60,586 bases of DNA from a virus (Duplodnaviria; Caudoviricetes): positions 1-60,586 of the IMG/VR virus record IMGVR_UViG_3300002219_000012. One strand, written 5' to 3'. This document shows positions 320-59,712 of the stretch, piece by piece. Made by a program: the position numbers and the translations under genes. Every line of letters begins with the position of its first letter. Positions within the stretch are counted from its first letter, which is position 1. The notes under the pieces are model-generated. The model saw nothing but the letters and a program-made list of their open reading frames with translations, was not told where the DNA came from and searched no databases.

Positions 320-411
320 TGGCCGTGTGCCGGTGAAATAGCAACAAATGTGATGCCCGACTTAAGTAACGTAGGTTTCACAGGGATACTATCAGTAACC
401 CGTCACGGCCA
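320..411 (+). ncRNA. Putative structured RNA, copy A
   Basis: TGGCCGTG/CACGGCCA closing stem, GAA/AGTA internal loop, stems covary with 59713-59801. Confidence 0.7.
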
Positions 412-1039: not shown

Positions 1040-1350
1040 CAGACGCAGACAAGCAGTTGATTTGTGGTTACATGGGGTGGAATCAATCTTGGATTGTTGA
1101 TGAATTTACTGATTGGTATCGTATTGAAAGTTTAACGTGGGTAAAGATCAACTTCGACCTCAACGACGCCGGACTCTGTGTTCAGGAAATGCAGAAGCGG
1201 GGGGATTGGGAAAGGTTTTGTGCAAACGTATTTATACTTTTTATTGATGAAGAAAAGTCATCTTATCTGTTTCCAAAATACATTGCTTGGCTATTCAACG
1301 CCAATAACTTCTTTACTGCAATGACGCAATGGTTGAAGGAGGTGAAATGA
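1036..1350 (+). CDS. Hypothetical phage protein
   Basis: ATGA-coupled ORF chain. Confidence 0.75.
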   Translation: MTDADKQLICGYMGWNQSWIVDEFTDWYRIESLTWVKINFDLNDAGLCVQEMQKRGDWERFCANVFILFIDEEKSSYLFPKYIAWLFNANNFFTAMTQWLKEVK

Positions 1351-3773: not shown

Positions 3774-3977
3774 TTACCCCAGGAACTTCATTCCGAGAAC
3801 GGCCACGACGCCGCCCACAAATCCCCCGGCAAAGGAAAAACATTTATTCCATATCTCAAGCCGGTGAAGTCGTGCGTCCATCGAGCGCAGCGTTTTAAAT
3901 ATCAGCCAATCCCGTTGATCAGCGTTCATCCCCTCCCAGTCCTCGTTTTCGCATACCAGAAATCTATCGCCTGTCAT
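3774..3977 (-). CDS. Small membrane protein (holin/antiholin-like)
   Basis: C-terminal TM; directly upstream of endolysin candidate. Confidence 0.55.
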   Translation of the reverse strand: MTGDRFLVCENEDWEGMNADQRDWLIFKTLRSMDARLHRLEIWNKCFSFAGGFVGGVVAVLGMKFLG

Positions 3978-4604: not shown

Positions 4605-7600
4605 TTAGTTCCGCAATAGCGCCCGCTCGTTCTTCGAGGGGGCCGCCATGCGCCGCGCCTGCATCTGCAATGACTGTGAGGTTATCGGAGAAACGCCCGG
4701 AATTCTCAGCTCCCGGATCTTCTTGTTGTAATCCTGAACCTCTTTTACAATCTCCTTATATTCCCCTCTGTCACGCTTGCCCAACGTCCACGCCCGGTAA
4801 CGCTCGTAAATAGCATTACGCTTATCAGCAAAATCCGCCTGCTGCCGGTGCCCCTCCCAGGTCCTTTCGGAAAGAACAGCCTGATCTGTTGACCGGAATC
4901 CGAATGTCCGGGCCACGGTCGCCGCGCCTTCTGGTTTATAGGGTCTGCCTTGTTCGTCCCATACCGGCCGGTTATTCCGTGTCGTAACGCCCTGGCTTGA
5001 TTCCCGTATCGCCCGGAGCGGATTAGCAAAGCCGGTCGGAAGTAAATGCTCTGCCGCTTTCGCGTACTGCTTGTTTCTGATGCTTTCTTTCGCTTCCTTT
5101 AACTCCGTGGCCACGCCGCCGATGGCGCCTGTAAGGTCAATGAAGTTCTTCGGGATACCGACGCCAGCGGATAATGAGCCGGATATATCCACACCCAGGG
5201 CGCCGGTCAATCCATGCCGCCCTATCTTTTCGGCTTCCAGGCCCAGGTGTTTCCGGATTTCATCCCATACCCACTTTTCCGGATCTCTGTCTTCCCCGAA
5301 TAAGGCTTTCAGGATAAACCCGGCAAAGCTGAAAAGAGCGTCCTTGAAGGGTAGCGCCGCGCCGCCGGCAAGTACCAGAGGCGACAAAAAGGCGAACATC
5401 ATCCCTTTGATATTCTTCTTCTTCGCTCCCATATCATAGAGCATTTGCAGGTAATTATGGCCGAACTTCTGATAAACATAAAACAGTTGTCCAAGCTTGG
5501 CCGCGGGGTTAGTGCCCTGCGCCCACATCGGCATCGTGGATTTGCCATAAACACCATGAGCCTTATCACTGGCTTCCTTGGCTACTTCCGCCGCCTCCCC
5601 GTGGCCCATCCCCTGTTTCCGGGCCAGCCGGTAGGCCGCCAGCATCGTGGTTCCACGGTTCCACTTTTCGGATTTGCCGAACAGATACATGGAGCCGTCC
5701 ATCATCGAGGACCATATCCGCGAATGAGTTTTGGATATCTCGCCCAAGGCCTCCCTGGTATATTGAGCATCGTCCCAGCCCTTTTTCTGGACCTCATCAA
5801 GAAACGCCTGTTCGTCGGCATTGGCCAGCTTCTTTCCGGCCATTAAAGCGCCGTAGTCTTTACCGGAAACGGCCAGCTCTTTGATGATTCCCATCAAGGA
5901 ACCCTTGCCGCCCAAAGCGTATTGGTGAATTGCCGCCGGCGCGGTTGTGATGATCGCCGTCGTGTTGACCGCCAACGAGCGGAGGTTAAAGCCGAGGAAT
6001 TTAAACGTGGCGATGGACTTAGCCAATCCGATCATCCTATCAATCGGTTCGACGTTTCTTAACTGTTCTTCAATGTAATTTTGTGCAACCTGAAAAGCCT
6101 TCGGGTCTTGAACCGGGTCAATTCCACCGATCTGTTTCCCCTCGAACTTCTCGCCCAGCATTTCCTTCATGGCCATTCGCGCTACACGGGCCTTGGCAAT
6201 TCCACCGGAAAGGCTGTTTGTATATTGAAGGTGCCGCTGAATCGGGTCTTCGATGAATCCCCGGACAACCTTCTCGCCCCTTCTGATCATGGTGGATCTG
6301 AACCCCCGGGCCTTGATCGCGTTGGAGACTTCCCTTAACACTTCCTCGTTGAATTTCAGCGTCAATTCGTTGGACAGGGCGCTTTTCTTGCTCAACTTTT
6401 CGAGGGCCGCGTCAATCAGTTTCGCCGTGGCCGTCGCGTTGACATCCTGATAAATCGTCTCGGGCAGTTTTTCAACCTGGCCCACGCTGAAAATCTTCCA
6501 GCCTTCACGCTGCATCTTATTGGCCAGCCGCCGGGCGGATAATTCTGAACCCCTGTGCTCCCGGTACCATTCCCGGTTTTCTTTCATGGGGCCATGCTCT
6601 TTATAAGCCTGTACCTTCCAATTCCCCTGTTCTCTTAATCTCGGGGCATAGAAGCCGCGCCATTCTTCCATTTGTGCCAGAGCGCCTTTAAGGGTCTGCC
6701 TTAATTCGTTCAGGTCGGGCTTTTCGCCCCGGAAATTGGCTTCCTCTGTGATCTCCTCGATCATTTGCCGTAGCTGGGCGGTCTGGAGGTCAAGGGCCTT
6801 GTCGTAAGACTGACGATAGAGCTTCCATACTCTGATCGTGTCTTCCGTCGCGCCCTGCTGCCGGATGTGCTTTTCAAACTCTTTAATCTGCTTGTCCAAA
6901 GGAATGGACGTATTCCGCTTCCAGGACGTATCGCCTTCGTCAATGATCTCCTGCAACTTCTGATATTCAGGGGATACTTTCCCGGCAAGTCTGTCAGCCA
7001 AAGTCAAGCCCTTGTTTTTGAGGGCCTTGGCCGCCTCTGTGACCGTGCTTTCCGGCGCGTCGATATCGTCGGCCATATTCAACTCATTGAAGGTTTCGTG
7101 ATAAATCTCGTTCCGATCGCGCATGAACAGCTTGACGATGTTCTGAATCTGCGGATGACCGAACCATTCAGGGCTCTTTAATATCGTTTCGAGCCAAGTC
7201 ATGTGCGGCGGGTGCAGCTTATTCATCATGGTTTGAATAAGGGCGTCCGTCTCGTCTTTGAGATAAAGATTGAGAACCTTCGGGTCGCGGGAGGTCGGCG
7301 GGTCTTGCTGGGGGCGGATGGAATATTTCCTGGCTGAATATTTTCTGGATTCACTCTCTTTTACAATCGGATCAACTGTCTGTCCGTTTTTCAGTCCGTC
7401 CGTCAATAACACCCCGCCGATTCTTTCCATGCCGGATTCAATATCCGCCACATATTCTTCGGTTGCAAATGGTATATCGACTCGGTATCCACGATTATAA
7501 TTATCTACCCCCAAAACAGTCTTACTCAGATTTTCTCTATACTGAATAAAGGCTTGTGACGTAGTGTCTATTTTCCCTTTGGTCGTTGATTGGCTGTATA

Positions 7601-10600
7601 AATGGTGGCTTATTTCATGGGCAACTCTATTGATAAGAGGAACATCGCCCTTGTCCATGCTTAGAAATATGTTGTTTCCACTTATGAACGCATTTATTGA
7701 TTTTGTGGAATCTTTGAAGGGAATTAAGTCAAAGCCATGAGAAGCAGCAAGATTTTGCATCTCTTTGAAGTTGTGATTATCATACCCCGTCGGATCGTGT
7801 GTTATTCCCTGTCCGGCCGTCCGGCAGGCTTCTCTAAGACGATGTGGGGCGTTAACGTCTTGAGAAATTCCTTGTCTTTCATCTGCCACTCGCCTTCTGT
7901 GTTCTTCTCGAACGCCGGGTAATACGCTCTCCCGTTCCCCGCGTCTATTCTCACTGTCGGCTGTTGGTCTTCCATCTTCGCCTCCTTTTTCTTCTATTAT
8001 ATCACCTTTTTGGTTAATTGAATATCCGGATTTTACAGTCTGCCCCCCAACCTCCGGGGGGCGGGTTGGGTTAGGGAGTTCGGGTTTTACAACATGAAAA
8101 TTAGGTTTCTTTTTTGGCTCTTCCTTAAAGTATGTTTCATTAATAAATGCCATGTCTTGTTTATTAAGACTGTCTATTTCTTTTTCAGCTCTTCTTAAAT
8201 CTGCAATAAGTAATTGTGGTTTTTCGGTAAACCTTTCGGCTATCTCCAGTGCATATTTTGGGTAATGTGCGGCTAATTGCTCTATTGAGAAAGCCAGTGG
8301 TGTGATTCCTTGAATGTTTGGGATGTTTTCTTTATATGGGTCAAAAATTGTGTCATAAACGGTCATTTTCCCCCATGCCGGATCGACATCTTCATAATGT
8401 TCATTAGCAATATGTTCAGGGAGGTTCTTTTTTACAATACTCCAAAACTCTGAAGGATAAAGTTTTTCTTCGGTAAGCGCCTTAATTGCTCTTGCAATTT
8501 CTATCACATTCTCTTTTGTGCCGAATATTCCTACATCTGGTGCAACATAATTATCTATTCGTGATTTACGGAAAGCATTTTCTTGAACAGCAATATCCAC
8601 AGAATCATCTTCCTTAAGAAAAGCAAGCGGATCATTCTCAATTTTTCGTGCTTCAAACTCAGGCACATCCCATTTAGACGTATCGCGCCATGCTTCAATT
8701 CCATCCTCGGCCTTCGGGGTTGTCTCGGGTGGTATGTTGGCCGTCCCCTTCCCTTGTGTTCCAGAATAACGATTCTCGGATTCCGCTACTTTCCTTTCCG
8801 GCGCTTCTTCTGATACGGGAACTGTCTCTCGTCTTTCCGGCCGTGTAACCTCTCCAGTTCTTCCTTGTAGATAACGCTCGCGGTATTTAAGGTATCTATT
8901 CGTTGCTTCTGTTTCTTGGGTACGTGTTCCATCGTATCTCCTGTATTGGTATCCATAAAATGATAGTGGCCGCATAAAGATACCCTCGTTTCCGGTGGTA
9001 TCCAATTCTCCTCTTATATTAACATGGGCTACGAAAATATCCAAGCCGTCATAATACAGTTGGTCGGCTTCGGCTCTGGTAATCGGGACGTAGCCCATTG
9101 CGATAAAATTACGGGGCTTCTGCCAGAATTTCAGCGGGAGACTTTCTAATTGTTTCTGAATGTCCATGCCTTCCCACCATTTGTAATTCGGATTGTCCGA
9201 ACGTGAAAACATCGGTTGGCTTCGGCGAACAGGTGAACGCTGAAATTCAATCGGCACTTCTTGCTCTTGCTCTTCTCTTATGGCGTCCAGTTTTTCACCG
9301 TTCCGTTCCAGAAGCGCAATGCGATCTAAAACTTTCTGATCCCAGATGACGTAATTATATGTGTAACCTCTTTTAAACTTATTAATATAGTTTTGTCTCG
9401 CCTTCGATTTCTCTTCTGGTGTATCGTGTAAATATTGAACAAGATAATCCGCGGCAGCCTCTGCATCGCCGTTAAAATTGTCATAAGCGACCTTCATTTG
9501 ATTATCAATGATATTGTAGTTCCTGCTCATCTGATCCAGATACTTGTTGCCGGGGATACCAATAGAAGCAAGGTATTTGGAAGCCGCTTTTTGTGAACCA
9601 AATTTTTGAGTAAGGTGTTCGTAGTATCGTGACCCCTTAGCGTCAAGTGGTTTAACGGGGCGCAAAACGTAACCCTGCCTTTCCCATTCGGCCTTTTCTT
9701 CTTCGCCCCTTGCCCACGCTAATCGCTTGCCGGTTTTTGTATAAATATCATGCGTAACATCACCGGGAACCAAATTGACGTTTTTCCCCAAGAGAATCTT
9801 TATATACTCACTCTGTTCTGAAAGCGGTTTATCCCAATCCAGCAACTTCGGGATAACGTCATCTGGGATTTCGAGTTTGTAGAGGGAGTTTGCAATCTTA
9901 ACATCTGCATTAGCCCATTTATCAAGGATATCGGCCACGGTGTTTAGTTTTTCTGCCTGATCCCATCCGGCTTCTTTTTCAAATAGCGTAAGCGATTCAG
10001 GGTTATTTTTTGCTATTCTTGCCGCCGTTCTAATTCGATGAGCTTCCATTAATATTGATTTATTAACAAGGAGCGAGTTGGCGGCTATCGTTACGGCCAT
10101 TTCTTCCGCTGTTTGCTTCTCAAGTGGTTTTTTTGTCCCGCTATATATCTTTCCATCAACGTCAATGGATTGTCCGCTTGCGCCCAAGTATGCCTTACCA
10201 GTTACTTCCGCTTCTGCCGAATACCATCCCCATCCGAACGCCGCTGCACCCTCTCCTGTTCCTATCTTGTCCAGCCTCGGTCTGCCATGAGGGAACCCAG
10301 GTTCAGGCATCCAGACGTGCGGTGTTCCGTGATGGGCTATCTTAAAATTGACGCCCTCGCCTCCAAACTCTTTAAACGCATCCTGTAATACTACCCGGAC
10401 TTCCGCATCGGACAGCTTAACATCAAGCCCTATGGCTCTCAAAAGGTCGTGGAAGATAGCAACCAATTTGTCATACCACTTGGGTTGAGCCTCATAAGAC
10501 TGGTTGCAAAGCCATTCCTCGCAAGCCTGCCGCCGGTCTTTAGCGGTTCTGGTATTCAGGTGGGTGTGGGTGGTCTTTGTGATCTGCTCAATCTCTTTGT

Positions 10601-13600
10601 GGTGCGCCCTGTAAATGGCGTCCATCAGGGCTTCGTATTGCGCCCGGACAGGCACTAACGCCCTCGACATCCGCTGCCGCTGGAAGAATTTGCCTAAGCC
10701 GCTGTGGGTCAATTCGTGGGCTAAGGTTCTAAGGGCTTCCTCGGTGTTCTGAAGGTTGTCAGAGACAAGATAAACTTCGCCTTTATAGGTGAACCCCATA
10801 GCATCGTCAATGCCCTCTTGCTCCATGATTTTCTGGACTTCATCCGGGCAGTTCTCATTGCCCTGAACCACGTTGACTTTCGGGGCGTTGGGGATGGCAG
10901 TTACAGCCTTGTTGATGATTGACTGGACGGCGGACTGCTGGAGGCCGGAGGAGGTAGTTCCTTTGCGCTGATACATCGCCACGCCCTTGTCGGTTTCGCG
11001 GGTCTGGATGGTGTCAAATAGCTTATCAAACGCATCTTCGACTGGTGCGATTTCACTGTCATACAGATACGGGTATCTATCGGCCATGCGTTTGAAATCT
11101 TCAACCCTCACGACATTGGCTAAGTAATCGTTCTGGTATCCCTGTTTCGCCATTTTAACGATGACGTAATTTTCAAAAGACCGTGCAGCGCGTTCGATTA
11201 TCCTTGACCAATACTTATTTTTGATATGCGAAACACGTTCAGACATCGGAGAATTGTCGAGAGTTTCAACCAACTTTTTGAACGCCTCGGCAACTTCCGG
11301 TCTCACCCCTTCAATCTTTGTCCAGTTTTCAGGCTTAAGGCCACGGCGGTTTAGAATCTCGTTGTACCGCGATGCAGACAACCTCGCCCCGCCCTTTTCC
11401 TGATAATAGGTTTCGGGGCTGTAGGTGATATAGTTTTTTTCGCGCGTAACGCCTTCAATGCCTCTCGCACGCTGGAAGTAATTGTCCAGGGCATGGAAAA
11501 ACTCATGAGCAAAAGTCCCGGAGCCTTTTGTCTTTGTCAGATTAATAACTATCGTATCTGGTTCATAATGCGCCGCTGCCCCTCCGTGCCCCCGCGAACC
11601 GAATCCAAGCCCAAGCGTTCCGTTCAAAGAGATAGCCTTGGGAGGTATCCCGATTATATCGGCCAGATCCATCATGGCATCGTAGGCATCGTTGAGCATC
11701 CCTTGCCGTTCTTTGGCATTACTGCCCTGTGCTACCCAGTTGCCGAACTCGACACCACGAAATCCGAAAGTGTCTATGAATTGTTGTGGAGTGACATCTT
11801 TCCCCGCACGGTGATCCTTCCCGGCCCGGGGACGGTTTTCTTTCGTGCGGACATCCTCCTTAGCGACGTTTTCCAACTCTTTGACGGCATCCCACGCTTT
11901 CAGAAGTTCATCGGGATGTTCGTTTCTGAAATCAAGAGCTTCCTTGGATGTTTTAAATTCTTTCAGCTTGTGGTATTGGCTGTCGCCTTTTTTATTAATA
12001 AAGTAACGATCTCCACTGCCACGAACTTCAAAGCCTTTAATGGCGTCCGATTTTATCGGTGTCGTCTTGCCCAATGCTTCATTGACCTGCTCAATGGATT
12101 CTTCGACGGACTTCAAGCCTTCAAAAGATTTGTACCGGCCGTCAATGTAAACAGACACGGAAGGCGCTGGGATGTGTTCATATTTTCCGTCATCACCCAT
12201 CTTATCGCTGTATCGGTACGCATCGGGGTATTCGTTTACATCTCCTATCCTATCCCATTGCTCACGGTCGATTGCTTCGAGGAGACGAATCTTAGCAAAA
12301 AACCCTTTAAGCGAGGAAAACGATTTTGATTTGTCTAATATCTTGCCTCGGCTGTATGCACCGTTTTCAATATCCTTAAATAGATCGCTCATCATGCCGC
12401 GAAAGGCCTTAACCTTCTCAACCCAGCGGCTTACTTTATATTTTAATTGAGGTTTTGTTGGAATTGCGCCCCTGGCGGCAAAAGCAAACGCGGCAACGAA
12501 TTTATCTTCGATGGCATCAACTTCGCTTTTTGGCCATATCTTACTCAATGGCAGACTGGCAATATCGGAATCGGTATATTCTTTTTTAAATGATTCAGAT
12601 CTGTCTTTCCTGGCTCCGCCCAGTTTTTCTCCGAAGTCCTGAATATCTTCTTTCCCGCTTTTTGAGGCAGCTGGTACTATCGCTTTCGATTGGCCGGTTT
12701 CTTTCCTCAACCGGTCAATCGCCCGGTCAAGCACTTCGTTGAGGTCTTTCACCTGCATCTGATACAGGCTATCCTTGCCCGTTTTCACGCCCTTATTTAA
12801 AGCCAATGCAGCAGGTAGTCCCTCTTCTGCTTTCTTCATGAGATTGTAAGCAAGGGTACTATCGTACCGTTTTATTTCATCGTAAATTTCACGGGAAACG
12901 CTCTTGTCTATTGCGCCAGCCTCATCCCTTGAGGTTATCGTTGATAGCTTTTCCTTAATTGACAAAAGCTGCTGGGTGATAGGGTGATCGCTGTTTTCTG
13001 GTTGCCCTTCTTTATAAAGGTTTGTCCCATCAATGCGCACATTTAAAAAACGAGTTTTATCTGTCGGGTCAACCGAAAATGAAACAAGGCCACTTTCTTT
13101 ATTGTTTTCATCCAGGCGGGCGGCTGTCAGCGTAAAGCCGCTGTCGCGGTCAAGGGCATATCGGTTGCCTTCATTATCCACAAGAACGTCGCCACGGGTT
13201 AGCTTTGTGCCATTGTGTCGGTTGGTAGCAGGGTCGTAACGTAACCCGTCTGCTTTCCCTTCTTCCTTCGTCATCTGCCAGGGTTCTTTGGCTTCCGGCT
13301 TCTGCTCGGATGGTTCGGCAAAATAATCACTCACCGCCTGATCCGTCCCCTTGACGGTATTCGGGAGTTTTGCACCTGTCCGGTTTTCAAATTCAGCCCG
13401 AAGATTTTTGTTTGGCAGGTCGAGATATTCCTGCATCTTCAAGGTGTCTTTTGATTCAAAGGCTGCGTTGAATTTATCCTTCGTGGATTGCGGCAAAGAA
13501 TCAAATCCGGCGAGCGGTGCGGTCTTCTTGCGTTCTGGCCTCGTTGTTCCGTCCATGCGAAGGGGCTTCGGTTTGGCAGGTTCTTCTTCAGCCTCAACCA

Positions 13601-16600
13601 TTTTCGCGGCGTCAGCAATATGGTCGGGGGCGGAATAGACGTTTTTATCATAACCCGCAATCTTCAATAATTCTGCTGTTTTTTTATCAATGCGTTCTTT
13701 TAATCTTGGCTCAACGCCAACGATATCAGCAATATCCTTGATCTTGCTTTTTGCCTCTCGCGTTAGTAATCCCGCCTGCAAGAGTTCGTCGTCTGATCTT
13801 CCAATTAAGTTGTCGATGTGTACCCTTGCCACAAGATCATTGTTTTTAAGGTATTCCATGTCCGCAAGCAAATCAGACGTTAATTTCGGATCGACTTCTT
13901 CTGTTTGTGTTTTTTTCTCTTCCGCAAACAAGTCCTCATTCTTCGGCGTGACCTGCTGGGGTAATCCTTTGCTTATTTCCGTTTCGGGGTTGGTAAGATT
14001 GAACGAATCAGTGCCTTCAATCTTGGTCTGATTCTTCTCGGTGATTGCTGGTTTTTCGGCTGGTTTGTTTTCTGCTATGGCTGCAAAGAAATCATCAGCA
14101 TCGTGCGAGGCAAGCGCTAACTCGCTTTCTGTGAGGTCGCCCTCCTGCGCTTCAATCTCATCAAGAGAAACTGCTTTAATGTTTTCTTGACCTTCTCCTG
14201 CGATGGCGTCAGCGAATTCGTTTTCTTCGAGCTTTGCGAGTTGCTCTGTGATCCACTCATTTTCTTTCTCCTCAATCTCTGTTTCCATTTTACTCTCTTG
14301 CAGATCAGGACGCAACACCTTTCTTGCATCCCCTTCGGCCAGTTCTCTAAACAAAGTCACATCCGTAAACGGTTGACCGTCCCTGTCCCGGTATCCTTCA
14401 AGATTGGCCATACTTGCGGCCTCATCCATTGAAAACTTGCCGTTGATGCTGGCAACTGCCTTAATAACGCCCATTTCCCGGCTCTGGTCTTTCCCGCGCT
14501 TACCATGCGCCCGATCCCAGGCCGTGCCAGTTTTGGAAGTGAATGATCCCAGGCGGACTTTGCCGATGGCAATTATGAATTGAGCAAGGTTCTTTGATTC
14601 CGTGGCCTTCTTCGGGCTGTTGTCAACCTTAATGACCTTTTCTTTCAGCTTCTTATACCAAATGCTTTTGCCCTGTGTTTTATCGGATGGCTTGTAAACT
14701 ACCTCGTACCCTTCTTTTGCGGGTATCTCCCTGAGGGACTTCTGAATCCGGCCAAGGTCTTTACGTTCTGCCTTGCGGATGAAGATTTCGGCGGGTTCGG
14801 CGGCCTCATTCTGTTTCCGTCTTTTTGCCAGTTCAATTTCTGCGCCCTTATTCCCGGCGGCTGCAAATCCTTTTAATTGCTCCTCTGGAATTTTGCCCCA
14901 TTGGTCTTTCATCGCCTCCGGTATGTTACCAAAAGTGGCGGGCGTTTCAGTCGCTTCCGGCGATACCACTACTTCCTTAAGGTGTGCTGCTCCCTTTTTT
15001 GCGGCCTCAATGGTAGGCCACCGGCCAATCGAACCTCCTCCGAGGGGGCCTGATCCACCATTTACCCATTTATTCTTACCAACCGAAACAGCAAAACCAT
15101 TACCATCGGGATGCGGCACTATTCGTGCGGGCTCCTTAACCTTACCTTTCGTGGTGGGTTCTGGCTTAAAATCAACCAACACCTCGACGTTGCTCATTTG
15201 TTTTGGAATGTCCCGCTTCCACTGTTTTGCAACTAACTCCCCGTTTTCGCCCTTGACGGCAAGTATATAACGTGCGCCAACTCCCTTGGGCATACTGTCT
15301 GTATTGGTAATTTTAAGGTCTTTGGAATATGGGATTATCTGGCTCTCGGAACTGACACCCTCTGCCTTCTTGGGGGCAAGGTCAGGATAGTCTTTCAGGA
15401 CGGATTCAGGGACTGGTTTGCCTTCACGCACGGCATCGCGCACAATACCCCTGTGCCATTCTTTTTGCTTTGCGCTTGGCTCCTTCGCCTCTGTCTTAAA
15501 TGCCCCGGCCTCCCATGCGCTCCATTGACCAACTGGCATCATCCAGGGACTTCGGGAACTAGCATCGCCTTCTGGATTCGGCCACTGTTTACCCACCTCT
15601 TCGGCACTCATCTCCCACGGTTCTTTAACCTCACCCGCCGCTTCCACTTTCCCGGAGATGCTATCTTCGGGCGGCTTGGGAGCGGCGGGCACCTTTGCCC
15701 ACGGTTCCCCGGCAAAGTCCTCTATTTTGGCCGTATCGTTCGGCTTAAGATTCTTCGCCGTCAATTCATTGCTGATATTCCTTGCCGTCACTTCATCAAT
15801 GCCGAATTTCTTCATCAAATAGCGGTCAAGGTCTGCCTTAGTGGTCATCTGTGAATGAGCAAGTCTGGCCTTTTTGTCGTCGCCCAAAGACGCATCAACC
15901 TTATAAGCTGCGCCCCTCCATCTCTGTGCTTCCTTGACCATCTCGTTGAAGTCGGGAGAAGACTCCTCGGATTTCACTTCCTTTACGCCTACTGTCGCGG
16001 CATCGGTTTGTGAGAGAGGCGCGGGGAGTGTGCTGGGCTTTCCTTCGTGCGCTTTATTCCAGATTTCGGTAAGTTGGGATTTTGTTTTGATTTTATTTAC
16101 ATCAAAAACAACCGTTGTCTTCCCCACCTTAGTACCTTCTTTGTCTGCGAAAATTAAAGCATCGTGCCCTCTTTCCTGTAGTTTTTGTGTGATGTTAAAT
16201 TTTTTCTCCAGCGCCTCTAATGCGCGATATGGCGATTCATTGTCACCTGATGTAAATTCGTCAAAATAACTATCCGCCTTCATTCTCTTTAAAGTAAATG
16301 CGTTTTCCTCGGTATCAACCCCTAGCGCCTTAGTCAATTCGTCAAAGTTTTGCACCTTGCTCAAATCTATCGGGTTATGAACGTCTAGATTTCGTTCCAT
16401 TACATTCTTGCCGAATTTCCCTGCCAAATCCTTGTTGTCAGCGAAATAAGTCCCGAATGTCTTTTGCCCAGATGCGTCCCGAAATTCCTCTGGCACTTCA
16501 TTAAAAGGCTTAAACGTTTCAAAATCACCATGCGTCCCGTGGTAATAAGGTGTTTGCGCCTGCACAAACTCATCGGCGCTTTTATATTTAAGCGCTTCAG

Positions 16601-18347
16601 TGAGCAAATTACCTTCCGGCGTTGCCGCAGGTTCAACGTTCTTTTCAGCCTGTACGTTGGGTGCCTCGATGGGGGAAGTCTCAGCAGTGGGCAAGGGTTT
16701 GATTTCCTCTGCCGGTTTTACGATCTTATCAAGAACCTTCTGCTCGTCTGTGTCCAGAAGACCTTTTGCTCTGGCTTCCTGAAGGATGGCAATGTCTGCT
16801 TCGCTCGGTTTCTGTGCTGGATAATAAGGCAACGTCTTCCGGGCGTACTTTAATTTCTGCTGGTCAATTATCGGGGTTTCGGTTTGCAGCGTCCCATTTG
16901 GCACCTCCTCTTCTGGAATTGTATATTCCGGCACGTCTTCTTCCGTGTTTCTTGCGGGGATGATCTTCTTGATCCGCTCCATATCGGCCAGTGTTTGGCT
17001 GATGGAATCCGGGCGGGGCTCGGGGGAGGCTACTTCGTCTATCTTCCTGATAATGCTATCCGCGATAACACCGTTCAGCCCATCCCGTAACTGGGGGTAT
17101 CGCTCTTTGAATCTTTCAAGACTGTCACTGTCATAGATACCGCTGTTTTGTCCCTCGCGGATAATTTCAAGAGCGTTTTCGGGGGTGAAGGGATCGCCGT
17201 CAACGGTGCCCACTTTCATTCCCTGGTCAATGAAACTGGTTGCCAGAGCGCCTATCTTTAATTTATTGATTTCGCGTTCAAGTTCAGGGGGGTTGTCCTC
17301 GACGGCCTGCAATCTCTGATAAACAGCTCCAGCTCCGCCGATGAATCCGGACAACAAAAGAACAGCAGGGAATACTTCCTTTGCCGAGGTCAACCAGTCT
17401 TCCGGGCTTGTCCATTCCCGTTTGGGCTCGGAGGTCATACCGGCTTCGACTTCGACGTTGTGTTGGCCCATTTGGGTGACGGTTTCCGTCGCTTCCTCAA
17501 TTCCGATGATCTTACCCAGCTTCACAGCGCCTTTGGCCAGTTTTTTAATGACAGAATCGGGAATCAGCTTTCCGCCCGGAACTTTGTTTTTTGCAAGGAT
17601 CAACGCCAGTTCTGCCGCTGTGCCGATACCTTCCGGGACGGCCTCGTACAAACCTGACTTAGAGGCAAGTCCTTCGTATAGCCCCTTAAGCGCCGTTTCT
17701 TCCTCGGGGTTTATGCCGCGGCCATGTAACTTGATGCTTTCCTCATTCTTCCGGTTCAGCCAGTCGTTCATGGTCTGGTATGATTGCATCCTGTGGGCGG
17801 CCGCACCAGCGCCGAGCATCCGGCCCGCAAATATTCCACCGGGTCCACCGGGGGCACCAGCCACACCACCAGCCGCGCCAGCTACCATCGAAACGCCGCT
17901 AAACCCGAGGTTTTGCCCCAGTTGTGCAATGTCTTGTTTGGAAATAACGCCGGGGATTACGTCGCCCGTTCCCTCGTATTCTTTGGAAAGTTCCTCGTTA
18001 CGTTTCGTTACCCAATTAACAAACTTGTCGCCTATCCCTCTATCATTTATCGAAGCACCGCCGCCGCCCTGAATCGCTGTGATTGCAGAGGCCGCAAGAT
18101 TTTCAGGCACGCTTAAAAGCGTCTTTCCCAGTGCTCCCAGCGCCGATCCTTCTTTGGGTGGATTGCGGCGCTTTAGATCATCCTGGACGTGCTGATCGAC
18201 GCCCTCCTGCTTGGCCCAGGTGTCAAAATCAGAGTATTCCTTATCGTAACCCGCACGGGTATAAACGTCTTTTGCCACCTTATCAAGCGGCGCGTCTCCG
18301 TAATAATCTTTGTGTTTGTTATAGAATCCGAGAATGTCGAAAGCCAT
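4605..18347 (-). CDS. Giant polyvalent internal-virion/ejection protein (ART-like x2, LPD5/LPD1-like, HExxH x3, PLxRFG-like C-terminus)
   Basis: 4580 aa; YYHGT..GTYF..GHDALIF; IQDFGEKLGGARKD; FGFRGVEFGNW..AHEFFHALD; AHELTH; HHGTPH..GTGEGAAAFGWGWY; AHEISHH; last gene of virion module. Confidence 0.85.
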   Translation of the reverse strand: MAFDILGFYNKHKDYYGDAPLDKVAKDVYTRAGYDKEYSDFDTWAKQEGVDQHVQDDLKRRNPPKEGSALGALGKTLLSVPENLAASAITAIQGGGGASINDRGIGDKFVNWVTKRNEELSKEYEGTGDVIPGVISKQDIAQLGQNLGFSGVSMVAGAAGGVAGAPGGPGGIFAGRMLGAGAAAHRMQSYQTMNDWLNRKNEESIKLHGRGINPEEETALKGLYEGLASKSGLYEAVPEGIGTAAELALILAKNKVPGGKLIPDSVIKKLAKGAVKLGKIIGIEEATETVTQMGQHNVEVEAGMTSEPKREWTSPEDWLTSAKEVFPAVLLLSGFIGGAGAVYQRLQAVEDNPPELEREINKLKIGALATSFIDQGMKVGTVDGDPFTPENALEIIREGQNSGIYDSDSLERFKERYPQLRDGLNGVIADSIIRKIDEVASPEPRPDSISQTLADMERIKKIIPARNTEEDVPEYTIPEEEVPNGTLQTETPIIDQQKLKYARKTLPYYPAQKPSEADIAILQEARAKGLLDTDEQKVLDKIVKPAEEIKPLPTAETSPIEAPNVQAEKNVEPAATPEGNLLTEALKYKSADEFVQAQTPYYHGTHGDFETFKPFNEVPEEFRDASGQKTFGTYFADNKDLAGKFGKNVMERNLDVHNPIDLSKVQNFDELTKALGVDTEENAFTLKRMKADSYFDEFTSGDNESPYRALEALEKKFNITQKLQERGHDALIFADKEGTKVGKTTVVFDVNKIKTKSQLTEIWNKAHEGKPSTLPAPLSQTDAATVGVKEVKSEESSPDFNEMVKEAQRWRGAAYKVDASLGDDKKARLAHSQMTTKADLDRYLMKKFGIDEVTARNISNELTAKNLKPNDTAKIEDFAGEPWAKVPAAPKPPEDSISGKVEAAGEVKEPWEMSAEEVGKQWPNPEGDASSRSPWMMPVGQWSAWEAGAFKTEAKEPSAKQKEWHRGIVRDAVREGKPVPESVLKDYPDLAPKKAEGVSSESQIIPYSKDLKITNTDSMPKGVGARYILAVKGENGELVAKQWKRDIPKQMSNVEVLVDFKPEPTTKGKVKEPARIVPHPDGNGFAVSVGKNKWVNGGSGPLGGGSIGRWPTIEAAKKGAAHLKEVVVSPEATETPATFGNIPEAMKDQWGKIPEEQLKGFAAAGNKGAEIELAKRRKQNEAAEPAEIFIRKAERKDLGRIQKSLREIPAKEGYEVVYKPSDKTQGKSIWYKKLKEKVIKVDNSPKKATESKNLAQFIIAIGKVRLGSFTSKTGTAWDRAHGKRGKDQSREMGVIKAVASINGKFSMDEAASMANLEGYRDRDGQPFTDVTLFRELAEGDARKVLRPDLQESKMETEIEEKENEWITEQLAKLEENEFADAIAGEGQENIKAVSLDEIEAQEGDLTESELALASHDADDFFAAIAENKPAEKPAITEKNQTKIEGTDSFNLTNPETEISKGLPQQVTPKNEDLFAEEKKTQTEEVDPKLTSDLLADMEYLKNNDLVARVHIDNLIGRSDDELLQAGLLTREAKSKIKDIADIVGVEPRLKERIDKKTAELLKIAGYDKNVYSAPDHIADAAKMVEAEEEPAKPKPLRMDGTTRPERKKTAPLAGFDSLPQSTKDKFNAAFESKDTLKMQEYLDLPNKNLRAEFENRTGAKLPNTVKGTDQAVSDYFAEPSEQKPEAKEPWQMTKEEGKADGLRYDPATNRHNGTKLTRGDVLVDNEGNRYALDRDSGFTLTAARLDENNKESGLVSFSVDPTDKTRFLNVRIDGTNLYKEGQPENSDHPITQQLLSIKEKLSTITSRDEAGAIDKSVSREIYDEIKRYDSTLAYNLMKKAEEGLPAALALNKGVKTGKDSLYQMQVKDLNEVLDRAIDRLRKETGQSKAIVPAASKSGKEDIQDFGEKLGGARKDRSESFKKEYTDSDIASLPLSKIWPKSEVDAIEDKFVAAFAFAARGAIPTKPQLKYKVSRWVEKVKAFRGMMSDLFKDIENGAYSRGKILDKSKSFSSLKGFFAKIRLLEAIDREQWDRIGDVNEYPDAYRYSDKMGDDGKYEHIPAPSVSVYIDGRYKSFEGLKSVEESIEQVNEALGKTTPIKSDAIKGFEVRGSGDRYFINKKGDSQYHKLKEFKTSKEALDFRNEHPDELLKAWDAVKELENVAKEDVRTKENRPRAGKDHRAGKDVTPQQFIDTFGFRGVEFGNWVAQGSNAKERQGMLNDAYDAMMDLADIIGIPPKAISLNGTLGLGFGSRGHGGAAAHYEPDTIVINLTKTKGSGTFAHEFFHALDNYFQRARGIEGVTREKNYITYSPETYYQEKGGARLSASRYNEILNRRGLKPENWTKIEGVRPEVAEAFKKLVETLDNSPMSERVSHIKNKYWSRIIERAARSFENYVIVKMAKQGYQNDYLANVVRVEDFKRMADRYPYLYDSEIAPVEDAFDKLFDTIQTRETDKGVAMYQRKGTTSSGLQQSAVQSIINKAVTAIPNAPKVNVVQGNENCPDEVQKIMEQEGIDDAMGFTYKGEVYLVSDNLQNTEEALRTLAHELTHSGLGKFFQRQRMSRALVPVRAQYEALMDAIYRAHHKEIEQITKTTHTHLNTRTAKDRRQACEEWLCNQSYEAQPKWYDKLVAIFHDLLRAIGLDVKLSDAEVRVVLQDAFKEFGGEGVNFKIAHHGTPHVWMPEPGFPHGRPRLDKIGTGEGAAAFGWGWYSAEAEVTGKAYLGASGQSIDVDGKIYSGTKKPLEKQTAEEMAVTIAANSLLVNKSILMEAHRIRTAARIAKNNPESLTLFEKEAGWDQAEKLNTVADILDKWANADVKIANSLYKLEIPDDVIPKLLDWDKPLSEQSEYIKILLGKNVNLVPGDVTHDIYTKTGKRLAWARGEEEKAEWERQGYVLRPVKPLDAKGSRYYEHLTQKFGSQKAASKYLASIGIPGNKYLDQMSRNYNIIDNQMKVAYDNFNGDAEAAADYLVQYLHDTPEEKSKARQNYINKFKRGYTYNYVIWDQKVLDRIALLERNGEKLDAIREEQEQEVPIEFQRSPVRRSQPMFSRSDNPNYKWWEGMDIQKQLESLPLKFWQKPRNFIAMGYVPITRAEADQLYYDGLDIFVAHVNIRGELDTTGNEGIFMRPLSFYGYQYRRYDGTRTQETEATNRYLKYRERYLQGRTGEVTRPERRETVPVSEEAPERKVAESENRYSGTQGKGTANIPPETTPKAEDGIEAWRDTSKWDVPEFEARKIENDPLAFLKEDDSVDIAVQENAFRKSRIDNYVAPDVGIFGTKENVIEIARAIKALTEEKLYPSEFWSIVKKNLPEHIANEHYEDVDPAWGKMTVYDTIFDPYKENIPNIQGITPLAFSIEQLAAHYPKYALEIAERFTEKPQLLIADLRRAEKEIDSLNKQDMAFINETYFKEEPKKKPNFHVVKPELPNPTRPPEVGGQTVKSGYSINQKGDIIEEKGGEDGRPTADSENRRGERESVLPGVREEHRRRVADERQGISQDVNAPHRLREACRTAGQGITHDPTGYDNHNFKEMQNLAASHGFDLIPFKDSTKSINAFISGNNIFLSMDKGDVPLINRVAHEISHHLYSQSTTKGKIDTTSQAFIQYRENLSKTVLGVDNYNRGYRVDIPFATEEYVADIESGMERIGGVLLTDGLKNGQTVDPIVKESESRKYSARKYSIRPQQDPPTSRDPKVLNLYLKDETDALIQTMMNKLHPPHMTWLETILKSPEWFGHPQIQNIVKLFMRDRNEIYHETFNELNMADDIDAPESTVTEAAKALKNKGLTLADRLAGKVSPEYQKLQEIIDEGDTSWKRNTSIPLDKQIKEFEKHIRQQGATEDTIRVWKLYRQSYDKALDLQTAQLRQMIEEITEEANFRGEKPDLNELRQTLKGALAQMEEWRGFYAPRLREQGNWKVQAYKEHGPMKENREWYREHRGSELSARRLANKMQREGWKIFSVGQVEKLPETIYQDVNATATAKLIDAALEKLSKKSALSNELTLKFNEEVLREVSNAIKARGFRSTMIRRGEKVVRGFIEDPIQRHLQYTNSLSGGIAKARVARMAMKEMLGEKFEGKQIGGIDPVQDPKAFQVAQNYIEEQLRNVEPIDRMIGLAKSIATFKFLGFNLRSLAVNTTAIITTAPAAIHQYALGGKGSLMGIIKELAVSGKDYGALMAGKKLANADEQAFLDEVQKKGWDDAQYTREALGEISKTHSRIWSSMMDGSMYLFGKSEKWNRGTTMLAAYRLARKQGMGHGEAAEVAKEASDKAHGVYGKSTMPMWAQGTNPAAKLGQLFYVYQKFGHNYLQMLYDMGAKKKNIKGMMFAFLSPLVLAGGAALPFKDALFSFAGFILKALFGEDRDPEKWVWDEIRKHLGLEAEKIGRHGLTGALGVDISGSLSAGVGIPKNFIDLTGAIGGVATELKEAKESIRNKQYAKAAEHLLPTGFANPLRAIRESSQGVTTRNNRPVWDEQGRPYKPEGAATVARTFGFRSTDQAVLSERTWEGHRQQADFADKRNAIYERYRAWTLGKRDRGEYKEIVKEVQDYNKKIRELRIPGVSPITSQSLQMQARRMAAPSKNERALLRN

Positions 18348-44838: not shown

Positions 44839-45555
44839 TTACCCCTCCTCGATTGTGAAGACATTACTCCGAGCGTGGTCCATCCACATACAACGTGACG
44901 ACAAGGAATGAACCAGCCCGCCCATTGCCGTTATAACCGGGTCTTTATCCAAGAATTCCCGTATTCTATTGCGTAAAACGTCGTTCTTTCCATAAAACAG
45001 CCGCTGTGCGTCTTTGTCCAGGGCGGCGCTTATCGCCCGGATATAGACATCGAAAGCCTTTGGATCGTTGAAATCATCAGGCGGGGCGATAAGGACAGCC
45101 TGCTTGTTTCCCCCGGCCCTGCGGAGATCCTCGTTGTAAAGGGACAGCTCCAGGATAAATCGGCTTTCGTCTCCAATCCATGTTTGGAGCAGCCCCGGAA
45201 AGAGGCCAAACCCATATTCGGCCCGCATGTTGACCATTTCATCAAACAGGGTGCCGATGCCGTGGCTTTCATATTCCGCCAGCAGTTGAAACGGTGCCTT
45301 CTCCGGCTTTCCCTTACCCTTAACAACTCCCACAATGGCGATATATCCTGGCTTATTCGTGGCCTTGTTCTTATCGGTGATTACCGTCGGCCAGCCGATA
45401 CAGCCAAACAGATCGTAATATAATTGCCCGGTTTCCGTGTTCTGGTAGTGGTGCGCCCGCTCAACAAACGGCGTCCCGGTGATGTGCGCCTCGTCGATTC
45501 TCTGCTGGTATAGTTGCCAATTCAATGGTTCTGGCAGGATCTTCTTAATTTTCAT
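44839..45555 (-). CDS. Degenerate terminase-nuclease (RNase H)-like protein
   Basis: FGCIGWP..GYIAIVGV..FQLLAEY..WIGD..DPVITAM pattern; directly after TerL. Confidence 0.5.
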   Translation of the reverse strand: MKIKKILPEPLNWQLYQQRIDEAHITGTPFVERAHHYQNTETGQLYYDLFGCIGWPTVITDKNKATNKPGYIAIVGVVKGKGKPEKAPFQLLAEYESHGIGTLFDEMVNMRAEYGFGLFPGLLQTWIGDESRFILELSLYNEDLRRAGGNKQAVLIAPPDDFNDPKAFDVYIRAISAALDKDAQRLFYGKNDVLRNRIREFLDKDPVITAMGGLVHSLSSRCMWMDHARSNVFTIEEG

Positions 45556-46819
45556 CCGGGAAGTCCTTTGCACCGCTGTTGTCGAAAGGTGTTTCGCCCA
45601 TCAAGTCTGTCATCGCCCAAACCAGAGCATCTAACCGGTTTGGTGATTTGTCGCCCGGCAGCCAAAGACACAATTCATCTTCCAGTTGCGGGAATGGCCC
45701 GACGTGATGAACACGATCCTTCTCATATTTCGCGGATACCGGCTCCGCCCTGACTATTTTCCCACGGGAGGCATGTACGAGCTTGATGGGCACGTTTTTA
45801 TCAACCTGCTTGATCGTAATGGCCACCATTTCCCCGCCCTGGTTCTTCTCCGCCACAATCAGATTGGCCTTGTGCCGATGGTAGGCATCAACGGCGGCCT
45901 GCGCCCATGCCAAAGGTGATCCGTTCAGCGTGCAATCTTCCAGGACAAAGCCCTGATCAGCCAGTGAACCGGCCACGATGATTCCGGCGGCATCCCCGCC
46001 GCCATCGGCAGAGGTTGTCGGGTCGATGGCCACAACGGTCTTTGACAGTTCGGGGGCTTCTATAACCCTGTTCTTTTCGATGTTCTCCCGGGTCCATAAT
46101 GCGCCCGGTGCCTGATCGATGTCCTCGGCCAATATCTCCATGCGATAAGCCAGACTGCTCATGTCCGAAGTGATTTCATCCAGCGCTTCCCGGCTTATGT
46201 AGGGATTGTCCATGCTGGAAAAATGGAATGTAGCCCAACGTAGAGGGTCGGTTTTGGCCAATAGCTGTGCTTTTTTGAATAATTTGGCTGCATGTTGCGG
46301 ATCGTCGGCTTTTGAGGCTGATCTTGACCGGAGCGATGGAGGCGTATAGATGAACGTAGCGTTCCCGTTATTGTCCAAAAGCATTGGAGCGCCCACAACG
46401 CCCCAGGCGTCCTCGTTCATCAGCTGCCATTCATCCAGGAGCAATTCGTCAGCGTAATCCCCACGCAGACTATCGGCGTTCCAGGCGGTCTTCGCCCTGA
46501 TCCGCTGCTCGGTGCCCTTGCGTTCAATAATGTGTTCGGATTCGTTTTTATAAAGAGCCTTCTTGTCAAAACCATCACCCAGCGCCCTTGTAACCGTAAC
46601 CCAAAATCTTTGAATTTGCTCACTCGTGGGTGCCGCATACAACACTCGTTTGCCCGCCAGAAACCTTTGGACGGCATAAACACCAATGCCGACTGTCTTA
46701 CCGCCCCGGCGTCCCGCCCGGATAACCTTGCGCTTTGCAGGCGAATCAATAAACGCGGCCTGCTTCGCGTGAGGTCGCGGTAAGTGAACATCAACTGGTA
46801 TTTGTGTTATCTCCATCAA
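45545..46819 (-). CDS. terL: Terminase large subunit
   Basis: Walker A AGRRGGKT, Walker B LLLDE, SMDNPY, VAIDP, EKNQGG, SPNRLDALVWA. Confidence 0.95.
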   Translation of the reverse strand: MMEITQIPVDVHLPRPHAKQAAFIDSPAKRKVIRAGRRGGKTVGIGVYAVQRFLAGKRVLYAAPTSEQIQRFWVTVTRALGDGFDKKALYKNESEHIIERKGTEQRIRAKTAWNADSLRGDYADELLLDEWQLMNEDAWGVVGAPMLLDNNGNATFIYTPPSLRSRSASKADDPQHAAKLFKKAQLLAKTDPLRWATFHFSSMDNPYISREALDEITSDMSSLAYRMEILAEDIDQAPGALWTRENIEKNRVIEAPELSKTVVAIDPTTSADGGGDAAGIIVAGSLADQGFVLEDCTLNGSPLAWAQAAVDAYHRHKANLIVAEKNQGGEMVAITIKQVDKNVPIKLVHASRGKIVRAEPVSAKYEKDRVHHVGPFPQLEDELCLWLPGDKSPNRLDALVWAMTDLMGETPFDNSGAKDFPDEN

Positions 46820-50446: not shown

Positions 50447-50807
50447 TCAACCTTTCGTAGCATTCCAACTTCCACGCCGCCGTGTTCTTCTGTATCCGGT
50501 TTCTTTCCGCCCTCAGTTTGTCGAAAAACTCTTCTGTCCGAACGCCCGTTGCAACCAGGACGGACTTGAAATCAGGATCGTGGTGCGCCGATAATCCACC
50601 CATTGTATGATGACTGGGGCAAAGACAAATTCCAGCGTCTAGGTTGTATCTCATGGTGACATAGCGCCTCGAATACAAGTGGTGCGGGTGAAGCTGGGTA
50701 TAGTGAATATTGCAATCCGGGAACTCACACTTATATCCGGCTCTCTCTATTACGGCCTGGCCCCATAGCTTAAGCAGTTTCTTGTCGCTGATTACCTTCA
50801 CCTTCAT
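50433..50807 (-). CDS. NinG/Rap-like HNH nuclease
   Basis: W...V..R...CE..C..LHPHH..SRR...RY...GICLC..HH. Confidence 0.75.
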   Translation of the reverse strand: MKVKVISDKKLLKLWGQAVIERAGYKCEFPDCNIHYTQLHPHHLYSRRYVTMRYNLDAGICLCPSHHTMGGLSAHHDPDFKSVLVATGVRTEEFFDKLRAERNRIQKNTAAWKLECYERLKAYL

Positions 50808-51451
50808 GCCGTAAACTCCAAAACACATTGTTGCTTATGCCTATTAAACCTATCCAACGCCGCTTCGTAATAATCCTTGTCTATTTCATAACCTACAAAG
50901 TCAAAACCCATAATGTCGGCGGCGATTGCGCTTGAACCTGAACCTAAATGGGTGTCAAGGATTCTGTCTCCTTGTTTGGCGTAGTTCTTGAGGAGCCACG
51001 CATACAAATCTATTGGCTTTTCTGTTGGATGAAATCTGTTTGGATTTCTAAACCCCTGCAAATTGCTTCTTGAAAATGTAAATATTCTTGTTGCCTTTGT
51101 AAAACTTGTCCAAGCAAGCTCAAAATCAGACTGATCAATCCTTTGCACCTTATCCCATGCTAAAATACATTGCGTTGGTGGTAAGTTAAAGTAATTCCCG
51201 CCCCAAATTATTTGGTTTTCGCTAACTCTAAAAAGTTCTTTAAAGTATCTGTCTGACGGAATATGTGTGTCCCACTTCCCACCGATCCACTTTGATGTTG
51301 TTCTGTTCCCGTTTCTACTATCACCAAGCCCTTGTTCATGGTGCGCCCCAATCCCATACGGCGGGTCAACAATAGCCAACTCAAATTCCTTGTCTTTCAT
51401 TGAGGCCATCGCTGCCATACAGTCGCCGTGAATAATGCGGACGTTGCTCAT
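50804..51451 (-). CDS. DNA N6-adenine/N4-cytosine methyltransferase (beta class)
   Basis: GDC, IVDPPYG, HPTEKP, LDTHLGSGS. Confidence 0.95.
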   Translation of the reverse strand: MSNVRIIHGDCMAAMASMKDKEFELAIVDPPYGIGAHHEQGLGDSRNGNRTTSKWIGGKWDTHIPSDRYFKELFRVSENQIIWGGNYFNLPPTQCILAWDKVQRIDQSDFELAWTSFTKATRIFTFSRSNLQGFRNPNRFHPTEKPIDLYAWLLKNYAKQGDRILDTHLGSGSSAIAADIMGFDFVGYEIDKDYYEAALDRFNRHKQQCVLEFTA

Positions 51452-51576
51452 AAGCACCACCCGAACCTTTCGCACAGCCTGCAAGCGCCGTAAATTGCTA
51501 AAAAGAAGATTGTCCAGGAAACCAGCGTCAGACCGATAATCGTTAATAACCTTGATAATGCGCTCCATCGCTTCAT
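51448..51576 (-). CDS. Small membrane protein
   Basis: GGAGG SD; hydrophobic 42 aa. Confidence 0.55.
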   Translation of the reverse strand: MKRWSALSRLLTIIGLTLVSWTIFFLAIYGACRLCERFGWCL

Positions 51577-51589: not shown

Positions 51590-52120
51590 TTAAAAGGGAA
51601 CATCTGGGCCTTCCTGTTTATTGACTCTAATAACCTTTGCCGCGTATTTTTCAGCATCTGACATTGGCATTAAAAATGTTTTTATTGTTTTCTTGGGTTC
51701 CCAAACCTTGTCTTGGTAGCGGGCTTTGTAAATGCCCTGCAATGTTTTCTTGGCAAAAATAAAAATTATTTCCTTGTTGCCTTGAACATAAAGCCAGGTA
51801 TTGTCATCCCGCATTATCCCGCTAGGCGTCCAGTTTTGAATGTCAGCGCGGCTTTTTTCGGCTACTTCTATTGAAACCTTTTTGGTTTCAAGTATCCTGT
51901 TGTCGAGCTTGATTTCTATACCTTGAGGGTTCTCACCCTTGTTGTATTGAAAATATTTACTGGAGTAGTTGCTGATTGAAATCCCTATTTCTTTTAAAAA
52001 CAAATCAACAACGAAGTCTTGAAACTCCAACGCCTCTTCAAACAACGTATCTCTGTCCCCATCAGGGTATTCAGGCTTGATGGCCAAACCTATCCCACCC
52101 ATCTCTTTTTCCTCTTGCAA
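51590..52120 (-). CDS. PD-(D/E)xK-like nuclease (start uncertain)
   Basis: E.QDFV..GE..IEIK.D..SIE..PSGI. Confidence 0.55.
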   Translation of the reverse strand: MQEEKEMGGIGLAIKPEYPDGDRDTLFEEALEFQDFVVDLFLKEIGISISNYSSKYFQYNKGENPQGIEIKLDNRILETKKVSIEVAEKSRADIQNWTPSGIMRDDNTWLYVQGNKEIIFIFAKKTLQGIYKARYQDKVWEPKKTIKTFLMPMSDAEKYAAKVIRVNKQEGPDVPF

Positions 52121-53841: not shown

Positions 53842-54084
53842 ATGGAACGCTTTATAAAGATTTCAGTCGTAACCGTAGTCACCCTGGCCCTCGTATTCTG
53901 CGGGCTCTATTGGTCGCAGACGGTGAAGGTGCGCCAGGACATCATGAGCAAATCTGATGAGGATTATATCTTGATGGTCTTGCGCCAGAAGTCCGCCGAC
54001 GACTGCGTGCTGAGGGAGATCCGGCCGGGTGTTTGGAGTTGCACAGAATGGAAATCAGGCAAGGTCTTTATGGTGCGGCGATGA
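53842..54084 (+). CDS. Small membrane-anchored protein
   Basis: AGGAGG SD; N-terminal TM. Confidence 0.7.
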   Translation: MERFIKISVVTVVTLALVFCGLYWSQTVKVRQDIMSKSDEDYILMVLRQKSADDCVLREIRPGVWSCTEWKSGKVFMVRR

Positions 54085-59701: not shown

Positions 59702-59712
59702 CGAATAAGACG

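Follow-up and report, generated by a model that had tools for sequence, protein, structure and literature searches.

The R sites of phage T7 are RNase III processing hairpins that lie between the cistrons of polycistronic phage mRNAs, and the REP/BIME, ERIC and Correia sequences of bacteria are intergenic imperfect palindromes, with tens to hundreds of copies in a genome. The bacterial sequences can change how stable individual mRNA segments are and are hot spots of recombination, and some of them have terminal inverted repeats and target duplications. T4-type phages carry promoter-early stem-loops (PeSLs), mobile regulatory cassettes (PMC2839356, PMC4122927) which are defined by a strong sigma-70-like promoter and a terminator stem-loop. 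In addition, 10,006 candidate structured RNAs have been catalogued from IMG/VR and other viral sequences (PMC10690425).

Here we describe an element of about 90 nt that is present twice in a linear IMG/VR virus record of 60,586 bases with an estimated completeness of 78%; the window refers to this whole stretch of DNA. The two diverged copies had been pointed out in an initial annotation, and all stems, loops and palindromes that it listed were found in place. Type A (320-411, 92 nt) and type B (59713-59801, 89 nt), both on the + strand, form the same extended hairpin. Like the PeSLs, the element is a short conserved intergenic cassette that recurs in a hyperplastic region made up of small accessory genes, is flanked by ORFs that differ between close relatives and lies at points of homologous exchange. 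Unlike the PeSLs, it is built as a multi-loop hairpin of 90 nt whose internal loops are conserved and which is joined to a stop codon and an SD, and neither the promoter nor the terminator was found. By analogy, its function would most resemble that of these cassettes, though without their defining promoter and terminator. Similar to the T7 R sites, it is an irregular hairpin with internal loops that lies between early-operon cistrons and ends just before the next ribosome-binding site; the two share no sequence similarity, and the loops of the element are more elaborate and more conserved. It has the extended irregular hairpin between cistrons that characterises RNase III-type sites, provided that both cistrons lie on a single transcript. 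The element shares with REP/BIME, ERIC and Correia sequences an imperfect palindrome in intergenic space that is presumably transcribed, but differs from them in having two copies, no duplication, a phage location and invariant asymmetric loops. Finally, it comes from the same data source as the PMC10690425 catalogue and is of the same kind (an intergenic covarying phage motif without an Rfam match); the catalogue could contain it.

Results

Genomic context of the two copies

Genes of structural or virion-associated look occupy the − strand of the window from ~4.6 to 47 kb. Small ORFs on the + strand, closely spaced or overlapping, form a block that extends from ~53.8 kb up to the right end and resumes between 18 and ~2.3 kb; among its products are a DNA methyltransferase, an ERF-family annealing protein and a YqaJ-like exonuclease. 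Gaps of ~100 nt are found in this block only at the two copies of the element, apart from one 206-nt gap (1784-1989), and the ORFs on both sides of both copies are all on the + strand. This arrangement suggests that the element lies inside an early operon of co-directional genes and would be transcribed within it.

Further features of the window were recorded. A single 4,580-aa ORF (4605-18347, −) with LPD5, LPD1 and ART-PolyVal domains is a ‘large polyvalent protein’, a kind known from phages and conjugative elements. There are three DNA methyltransferase genes (50804-51568, −; 52071-53186, −; 54033-54923, +), one of them fused to a ParB-like domain (PHROGs). An int-alpA RNA (RF02996; 50018-50083, −) scored 51.1 bits against a gathering score of 35.8 and was the sole Rfam family match in the window. 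The small genes X2 (18-314) and X1 (58801-59088) are CCGNC-motif paralogues with conserved 5′ and 3′ ends; they stay similar into the first part of gene Y (59046-), and the similarity breaks off 2-3 nt short of element A, which suggests a segmental duplication or an import from a related phage.

Architecture of the element

The shared fold has four helices and two internal loops and is capped by a palindromic apical loop. The closing stem P1 (TGGCCGTG/CACGGCCA), identified from the sequence and the minimum free energy (MFE) fold, pairs positions 320-327 with 404-411 in type A and 59713-59720 with 59794-59801 in type B, and is extended by 329-330/402-403 in type A and by the pair G59721-C59793 in type B. 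It is followed by P2 (GGT/RCC; 332-334/398-400 and 59723-25/59790-92) and by loop 1, in which GAA stands opposite CAGUA (335-337/393-397 and 59726-28/59785-89). P3 is ATAG/CTAT in type A (338-341/389-392) and ACTG/CAGT in type B (59729-32/59781-84). Loop 2 (CAACRAA/GGGAUA) reads CAACAAA on its 5′ side in type A (342-348/383-388) and CAACGAA in type B (59733-39/59775-80), and P4 is TGTGA/TCACA in type A (349-353/378-382) and TGTAAA/TTTACA in type B (59740-45/59769-74). The apical region spans 354-377 in type A, with the palindrome ACTTAAGT / ACUUAAGU at 360-367, and 59746-68 in type B, with the palindrome CCUAGG at 59753-58. All of these features are on the + strand.

When each copy was folded alone, the MFE structure had the same architecture (P1 of 8 bp plus 1-2, P2 of 3 bp, P3 of 4 bp and P4 of 5-7 bp); the apical stem was less well defined, with a 10-nt loop holding the 6-nt palindrome. 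The MFE z-scores of types A and B were −2.6 and −2.8 on the + strand and −3.5 and −3.4 on the − strand. When six distinct element sequences were used to build a covariance model, it scored 118.2 bits for type A and 90.3 bits for type B in the window, the next best score being 13 bits.

The bulged-G or loop E motif (sarcin-ricin type) has the consensus AGUA/GAA. Loop 1 fits this consensus as a sequence signature, with GAA opposite AGUA, invariant in both types, and with the GGU/RCC helix oriented as expected on the correct side. The GAA/AGTA loop had been noted before and is present in both copies, with one extra C 5′ of AGUA on the 3′ strand compared to the plain motif.

Comparison of the two types

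Over 88 aligned columns, types A and B are separated by 17 substitutions; indels of 2, 1 and 2 nt add to these. Because these indels break every frame, a conserved reading frame was excluded and the element was rejected as coding sequence. Of 25 usable pairs, 24 stay canonical in type B; three pairs changed on both sides (two in P3, one in P4) and one further pair went from U-A to U.G. When the 17 substitutions were placed randomly on type A (200,000 trials), at least 24 pairs were kept with P=6e-4, and at least three double compensations arose with P=4e-3. Sliding the 3′ partners by 1-3 columns lowered the paired cells from 96.8% to 30-44%. The compensatory changes from which the initial annotation had argued for selection on structure are thus borne out by both tests, although the covariation comes from one A-versus-B comparison of effectively two independent sequences, the other four distinct variants lying 1-3 nt from type A or type B. 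Overall, a structured element whose pairing appears to be under selection is supported.

The internal loops carry one change in 21 nt compared to 16 in 67 elsewhere (one-sided Fisher P=0.044). The apical palindrome was kept by a symmetric double change from CUUAAG in type A to CCUAGG in type B (columns 44 and 47). The pattern seen in this sequence comparison is that of an RNA whose unpaired bases matter rather than of a plain hairpin, on evidence that is real but thin.

Strand of the element

Types A and B have two wobbles each; every one of them reads as G.U on the + strand, with A.C in its place on the − strand, and the number of canonical pairs drops from 27 to 25 in type A and from 24 to 22 in type B when the − strand is read instead. 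The same is seen within types: a C-to-U variant in P1 (L008, L010, L012) and a U-to-C variant in the P1 extension (L006) each switch between G-C and G.U on the + strand. The + strand, which is the sense strand of the flanking genes, is thus the one that the wobbles favour. Since the wobbles are on the sense strand of all neighbours, an RNA within the operon transcript is favoured. Both strands fold because any inverted repeat must do so.

Known RNA families and signals

Neither copy was matched when the whole window was searched with Rfam 15 (4227 models) at gathering scores, and a search of 250-480 and 59640-59870 at E<=10 returned chance matches only, all outside the element; the earlier description of the element as unassigned was upheld by this check. 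Full-text literature searches aimed at comparators returned no description of it. No sigma-70-like promoter was found within or beside either copy and no intrinsic-terminator-like site at either copy, the 3′ tail being GUUUG or GUUG with no GC-rich hairpin and U run. A CUCC/UCCU anti-SD is absent from both copies.

A stand-alone sRNA gene or a terminator was rejected as no promoter-like or terminator-like site flanks either copy, and a riboswitch was rejected on the grounds of no terminator, no anti-SD and at least six unrelated downstream contexts, one of them without a start codon. The put antiterminators of phage HK022 have two hairpins with a promoter nearby. A put-like antiterminator was rejected because the element has one hairpin rather than two and no promoter nearby.

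Twister, pistol, hatchet and many hammerhead ribozymes are found in intergenic phage settings of this kind, and loop B of the hairpin ribozyme contains a loop-E-type motif too. The element might be a small self-cleaving ribozyme of a new class, with which the operon is punctuated, its loops being the active site and its stems the scaffold; the invariant loops between covarying helices, the intergenic phage position tied to no particular gene and the loop-E/bulged-G signature of loop 1 all fit. However, none of the ribozyme families of Rfam 15 (hammerhead, hairpin, twister, twister-sister, pistol, hatchet, HDV-like) matched even at E<=10, the internal loops are 4 bp apart on one continuous hairpin, which leaves little room for docking as in the hairpin ribozyme, and neither a junction nor a pseudoknot is evident. 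We consider a ribozyme improbable.

Loop-E-type motifs are also common protein platforms, and the element could act in trans, either released or within the mRNA, as a protein-binding decoy or platform or as a homodimer that kisses via its apical palindrome. The 6-nt loop palindrome kept by a symmetric double change points in this direction, as do the predicted loop homoduplexes of −3.2 (type A) and −8.0 kcal/mol (type B) compared to −0.4 kcal/mol for the A/B heteroduplex. Phage-associated RNAs that form homo-oligomers are documented (GOLLD, ROOL and OLE; PMC12286853). On the other side, the palindrome covariation is a single event that would arise by chance about 1 in 20 times, the centres of inverted repeats tend toward palindromes anyway, no promoter or terminator bounds a separate RNA, and no RNA-binding family was found among 27 distinct proteins scanned (Pfam, PHROGs). 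A trans-acting RNA is regarded as unlikely, if somewhat less so than a ribozyme.

Flanks and mosaic context

In type A, the 5′ flank (310-319) consists of an A-rich AAUAA and then 3-5 nt, and its UAA (312-314) is the stop codon of X2. The 3′ flank (412-431) has GUUUG, the SD GAAAGGAG (416-423), which starts 5 nt after the stem, and the ATG (429-431) of gene 429, an 82-aa ORF (429-677). In type B, the 5′ flank AAUAAGACG (59704-59712) follows gene Z (59435-59701; stop codon TGA at 59699-59701), and the 3′ flank (59802-59820) has GUUG, the SD GAAAGGAG (59805-12), which starts 4 nt after the stem, and the ATG (59818) of gene W, which matches phrog_38757 (unknown function). Both flanks of both types are on the + strand. 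The proteins downstream of types A and B are unrelated (BLASTP E=8.1), in agreement with the initial annotation, which had both copies ending just before the SD of unrelated genes. AAUAA sits 5-8 nt before the stem in all six flank contexts (6/6) and often supplies the upstream stop codon.

Type A was found in four upstream and three downstream contexts and type B in one upstream and three downstream contexts. Upstream of type A are X2 (window, L013), a shortened gene Y (L001/L005, with a variant in L006) or another gene (L007); downstream are gene 429 (window, L001/L005, L007), a different gene (L006) or an orphan SD (L013). The 3′ similarity of type A runs through GGAGAA(TT) and then diverges in the other contigs. 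In L013, the orphan SD after the element is followed by ~110 nt of non-coding sequence with no start codon, so the link of the element to translation initiation is not obligatory. Type B always has gene Z upstream, and downstream it has W (window, L002, L011) or one of two other genes (L008/L012; L010). The type B body is joined to an A-like 3′ flank (GTTTGAAgGGAGAATTTATG) in L008, L010 and L012, and the sequence downstream of type B in L010 is syntenic with that downstream of type A in the window (1179-1315, 99%). Such hybrids would be expected if crossovers took place at the closing stem and SD that both types share. Other mosaic breaks lie away from the element (near 741, 1153 and 59386). 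As the region is mosaic at many gene boundaries, a special position of the element at the joints is weakened, since any conserved intergenic sequence would partly show it.

Two further observations were made in L013. At 2135-2245, two copies of TTTATTTGCACG lie in a ~110-nt non-coding stretch before the next gene, which may be an operator/promoter region starting a new transcription unit. At 3890-3921, an SD/start cassette (GTTTGAAAGGAGAATTTATGAACGA) occurs without the structured element and with a different left side, suggesting that this ribosome-binding region is common to genes of these phages independently of the hairpin.

The occurrence of one element with differing flanks could also be explained at the DNA level, by a hairpin recombination site, a single-strand origin-like site or a selfish MITE/REP-like insert. 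In that case, selection for pairing would act on single-stranded DNA or come from the mobility of the element instead of from an RNA function. In its full length the element forms an imperfect inverted repeat whose 8-bp ends match perfectly, good folds are obtained for both strands (z-scores of −3.4 to −3.5 on the − strand), the phage encodes ERF and YqaJ recombination proteins, and G.T is the best-tolerated DNA mismatch, so that the wobbles are compatible with + strand single-stranded DNA. Of the features of a MITE, the inverted ends (8-bp perfect) are present, but no flanking direct repeat or target-site duplication was found at either type and no clean empty site was found. Moreover, there are only two copies in 60.6 kb, no transposase, HUH or integron-integrase family was found among the proteins scanned (a subset of the ORFs), and the asymmetric invariant loops and the conserved stop codon and SD are hard to explain in this way. 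Integron attC sites have R″ (RYYYAAC) and R′ (GTTRRRY) boxes at the base of the hairpin; in the element the base is TGGCCGTG/CACGGCCA, and no such boxes were seen by eye, with a partial GTTGAAA after type B only, and attC was rejected. We regard a DNA-level element as a minor possibility.

Distribution

Twelve copies of the element were found, two in the window and one in each of ten phage or metagenome contigs, and all belong to type A or type B with at least 97% identity within each type. The covariance-model search of phage and metagenome sets that had been proposed at the outset thus returned only these two types, in ten further contigs. Pattern scans gave two of these contigs in IMG/VR (L001, L002) and eight among JGI/ENA metagenome contigs, where nine loci comprised eight true A or B copies and one chance match (L009). 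Full-length, half-site and relaxed scans of IMG/VR gave, beyond L001 and L002, only chance or coding matches, none accepted by the covariance model. A pattern scan of one genome per prokaryotic species gave 0 matches, and blastn of both types against a phage collection and of type A against a plasmid collection gave no match. With the covariance model, no true match was found in about 75 other viral loci or in 154 bacterial genomes (151 of the order containing one Smithella genome and three with terminase relatives). Matches at L024 7290-7365 (14 bits) and in G072/L195 (22.9 bits) were rejected as lying in coding sequence, and the other TGGCCGTG occurrences in the window and loci also lie in coding sequence.

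Among the loci around homologues of neighbouring genes (nine for gene 429, three for YqaJ, three for gene Z), the element was found only in the known L001/L014 and L002/L025, and three loci that were read directly (L015, L026, L027) have no gap at that place. Homologues of the neighbouring genes at 44-76% identity are without the element, and its role is therefore dispensable for those genes.

A 6.3-kb stretch of the operon is at least partly present in 20 of the 24 public runs listed; the runs with the operon belong to 13 studies of hydrocarbon, landfill, groundwater, aquatic, freshwater, activated-sludge and wastewater samples. Four of the 24 (runs X15, X16, X17 and X3) were examined, as assembled contigs, which carry no ends, strand or levels. 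A DNA contig of a groundwater run (X3 record 32) covers Z, B and W with two differences in 596 nt. A contig over element B from a nominal RNA library (X15 record 8, 59720-59908) comes from a library flagged as probably DNA. The element is real in nature and, as judged from these searches, is confined to one phage lineage.

The narrow distribution and the near-identity within each type would also be expected of a functionless leftover of duplication or inter-phage recombination, with conservation reflecting recent common descent, and the paralogous pair X1 and X2, which adjoins the two copies, fits a segmental duplication or import. However, the fold (P=6e-4) and the loops were kept across 17 substitutions and three indels, and the element persists while flanking genes are replaced. 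Because of the compensations, a functionless remnant is very improbable.

Contig end and host lineage

At 60064-60586, a CRISPR array of eight identical 32-nt type I-C-like repeats and seven spacers of 32-37 nt runs to the contig end, and gene W (59818-) is cut short precisely at the start of the first repeat. L002 matches 56011-60063 with 100% identity and from there carries on into a full-length W, which L011 also has. Because both contigs continue into the full-length gene, the array either was joined to W by a chimeric assembly or has been inserted into it. The spacers had no match in the rest of the window or in the fetched loci. The type I-C PAM is TTC, and this motif is absent before the putative last ‘spacer’. 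An assignment of the host from the CRISPR repeat was rejected, as more than 120 genomes from many phyla carry the type I-C repeat. A relative of the 424-aa protein of the window (45545-46819, presumed large terminase) was found in a bacterial genome (G138:C1:908778-909989, locus L191; 63% identity, E=2.8e-167). This genome belongs to the order containing a Smithella genome, and neither the element nor a YqaJ relative was found in it. The terminase relative may serve as a weak pointer to the host lineage.

Discussion

As it stands, the element is one more structured-RNA candidate of narrow distribution without an assigned family. The reading that we tentatively prefer, with confidence just short of even, is that of a portable stop-hairpin-SD module in an early polycistronic mRNA, which would have a post-transcriptional role (processing, stability or insulation) and also be a crossover point for gene cassettes. 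The module would consist of the A-rich AAUAA, which often provides the upstream stop codon, the ~90-nt four-helix hairpin and the strong SD. A host or phage factor might cut or bind the transcript at the element; alternatively, the stable hairpin might separate the decay and translation of the cistrons on either side. The near-invariant internal loops, one of them of the loop-E type, would be the recognition surface, and the stems would need only to pair. Because the module is almost unchanged while the neighbouring accessory genes turn over, it could also act as a patch of homology at which related phages swap gene cassettes. Transcription within the operon, cleavage or binding, and an effect on expression are steps that we infer throughout. 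Invariant internal loops and a palindromic apical loop usually go beyond what simple stabiliser or processing hairpins need, which argues against the stop-hairpin-SD module as preferred here.

With the same invariant loops and palindromic apical loop, there is still scope for a new RNA activity. We also entertain, as a speculative and rather unlikely idea, that the element is a new compact RNA fold, either a self-cleaving ribozyme or a kissing-loop homodimer, serving as a portable ‘punctuation mark’ that allows cassettes to be swapped without disturbing operon expression. If the stop-hairpin-SD reading is right, the element would be a phage counterpart of the PeSL- and REP-like intergenic cassettes that organise expression and drive gene shuffling, built on a complex RNA fold instead of a promoter-terminator pair, and it would offer a testable example of how phages keep hyperplastic accessory regions expressible during cassette turnover.
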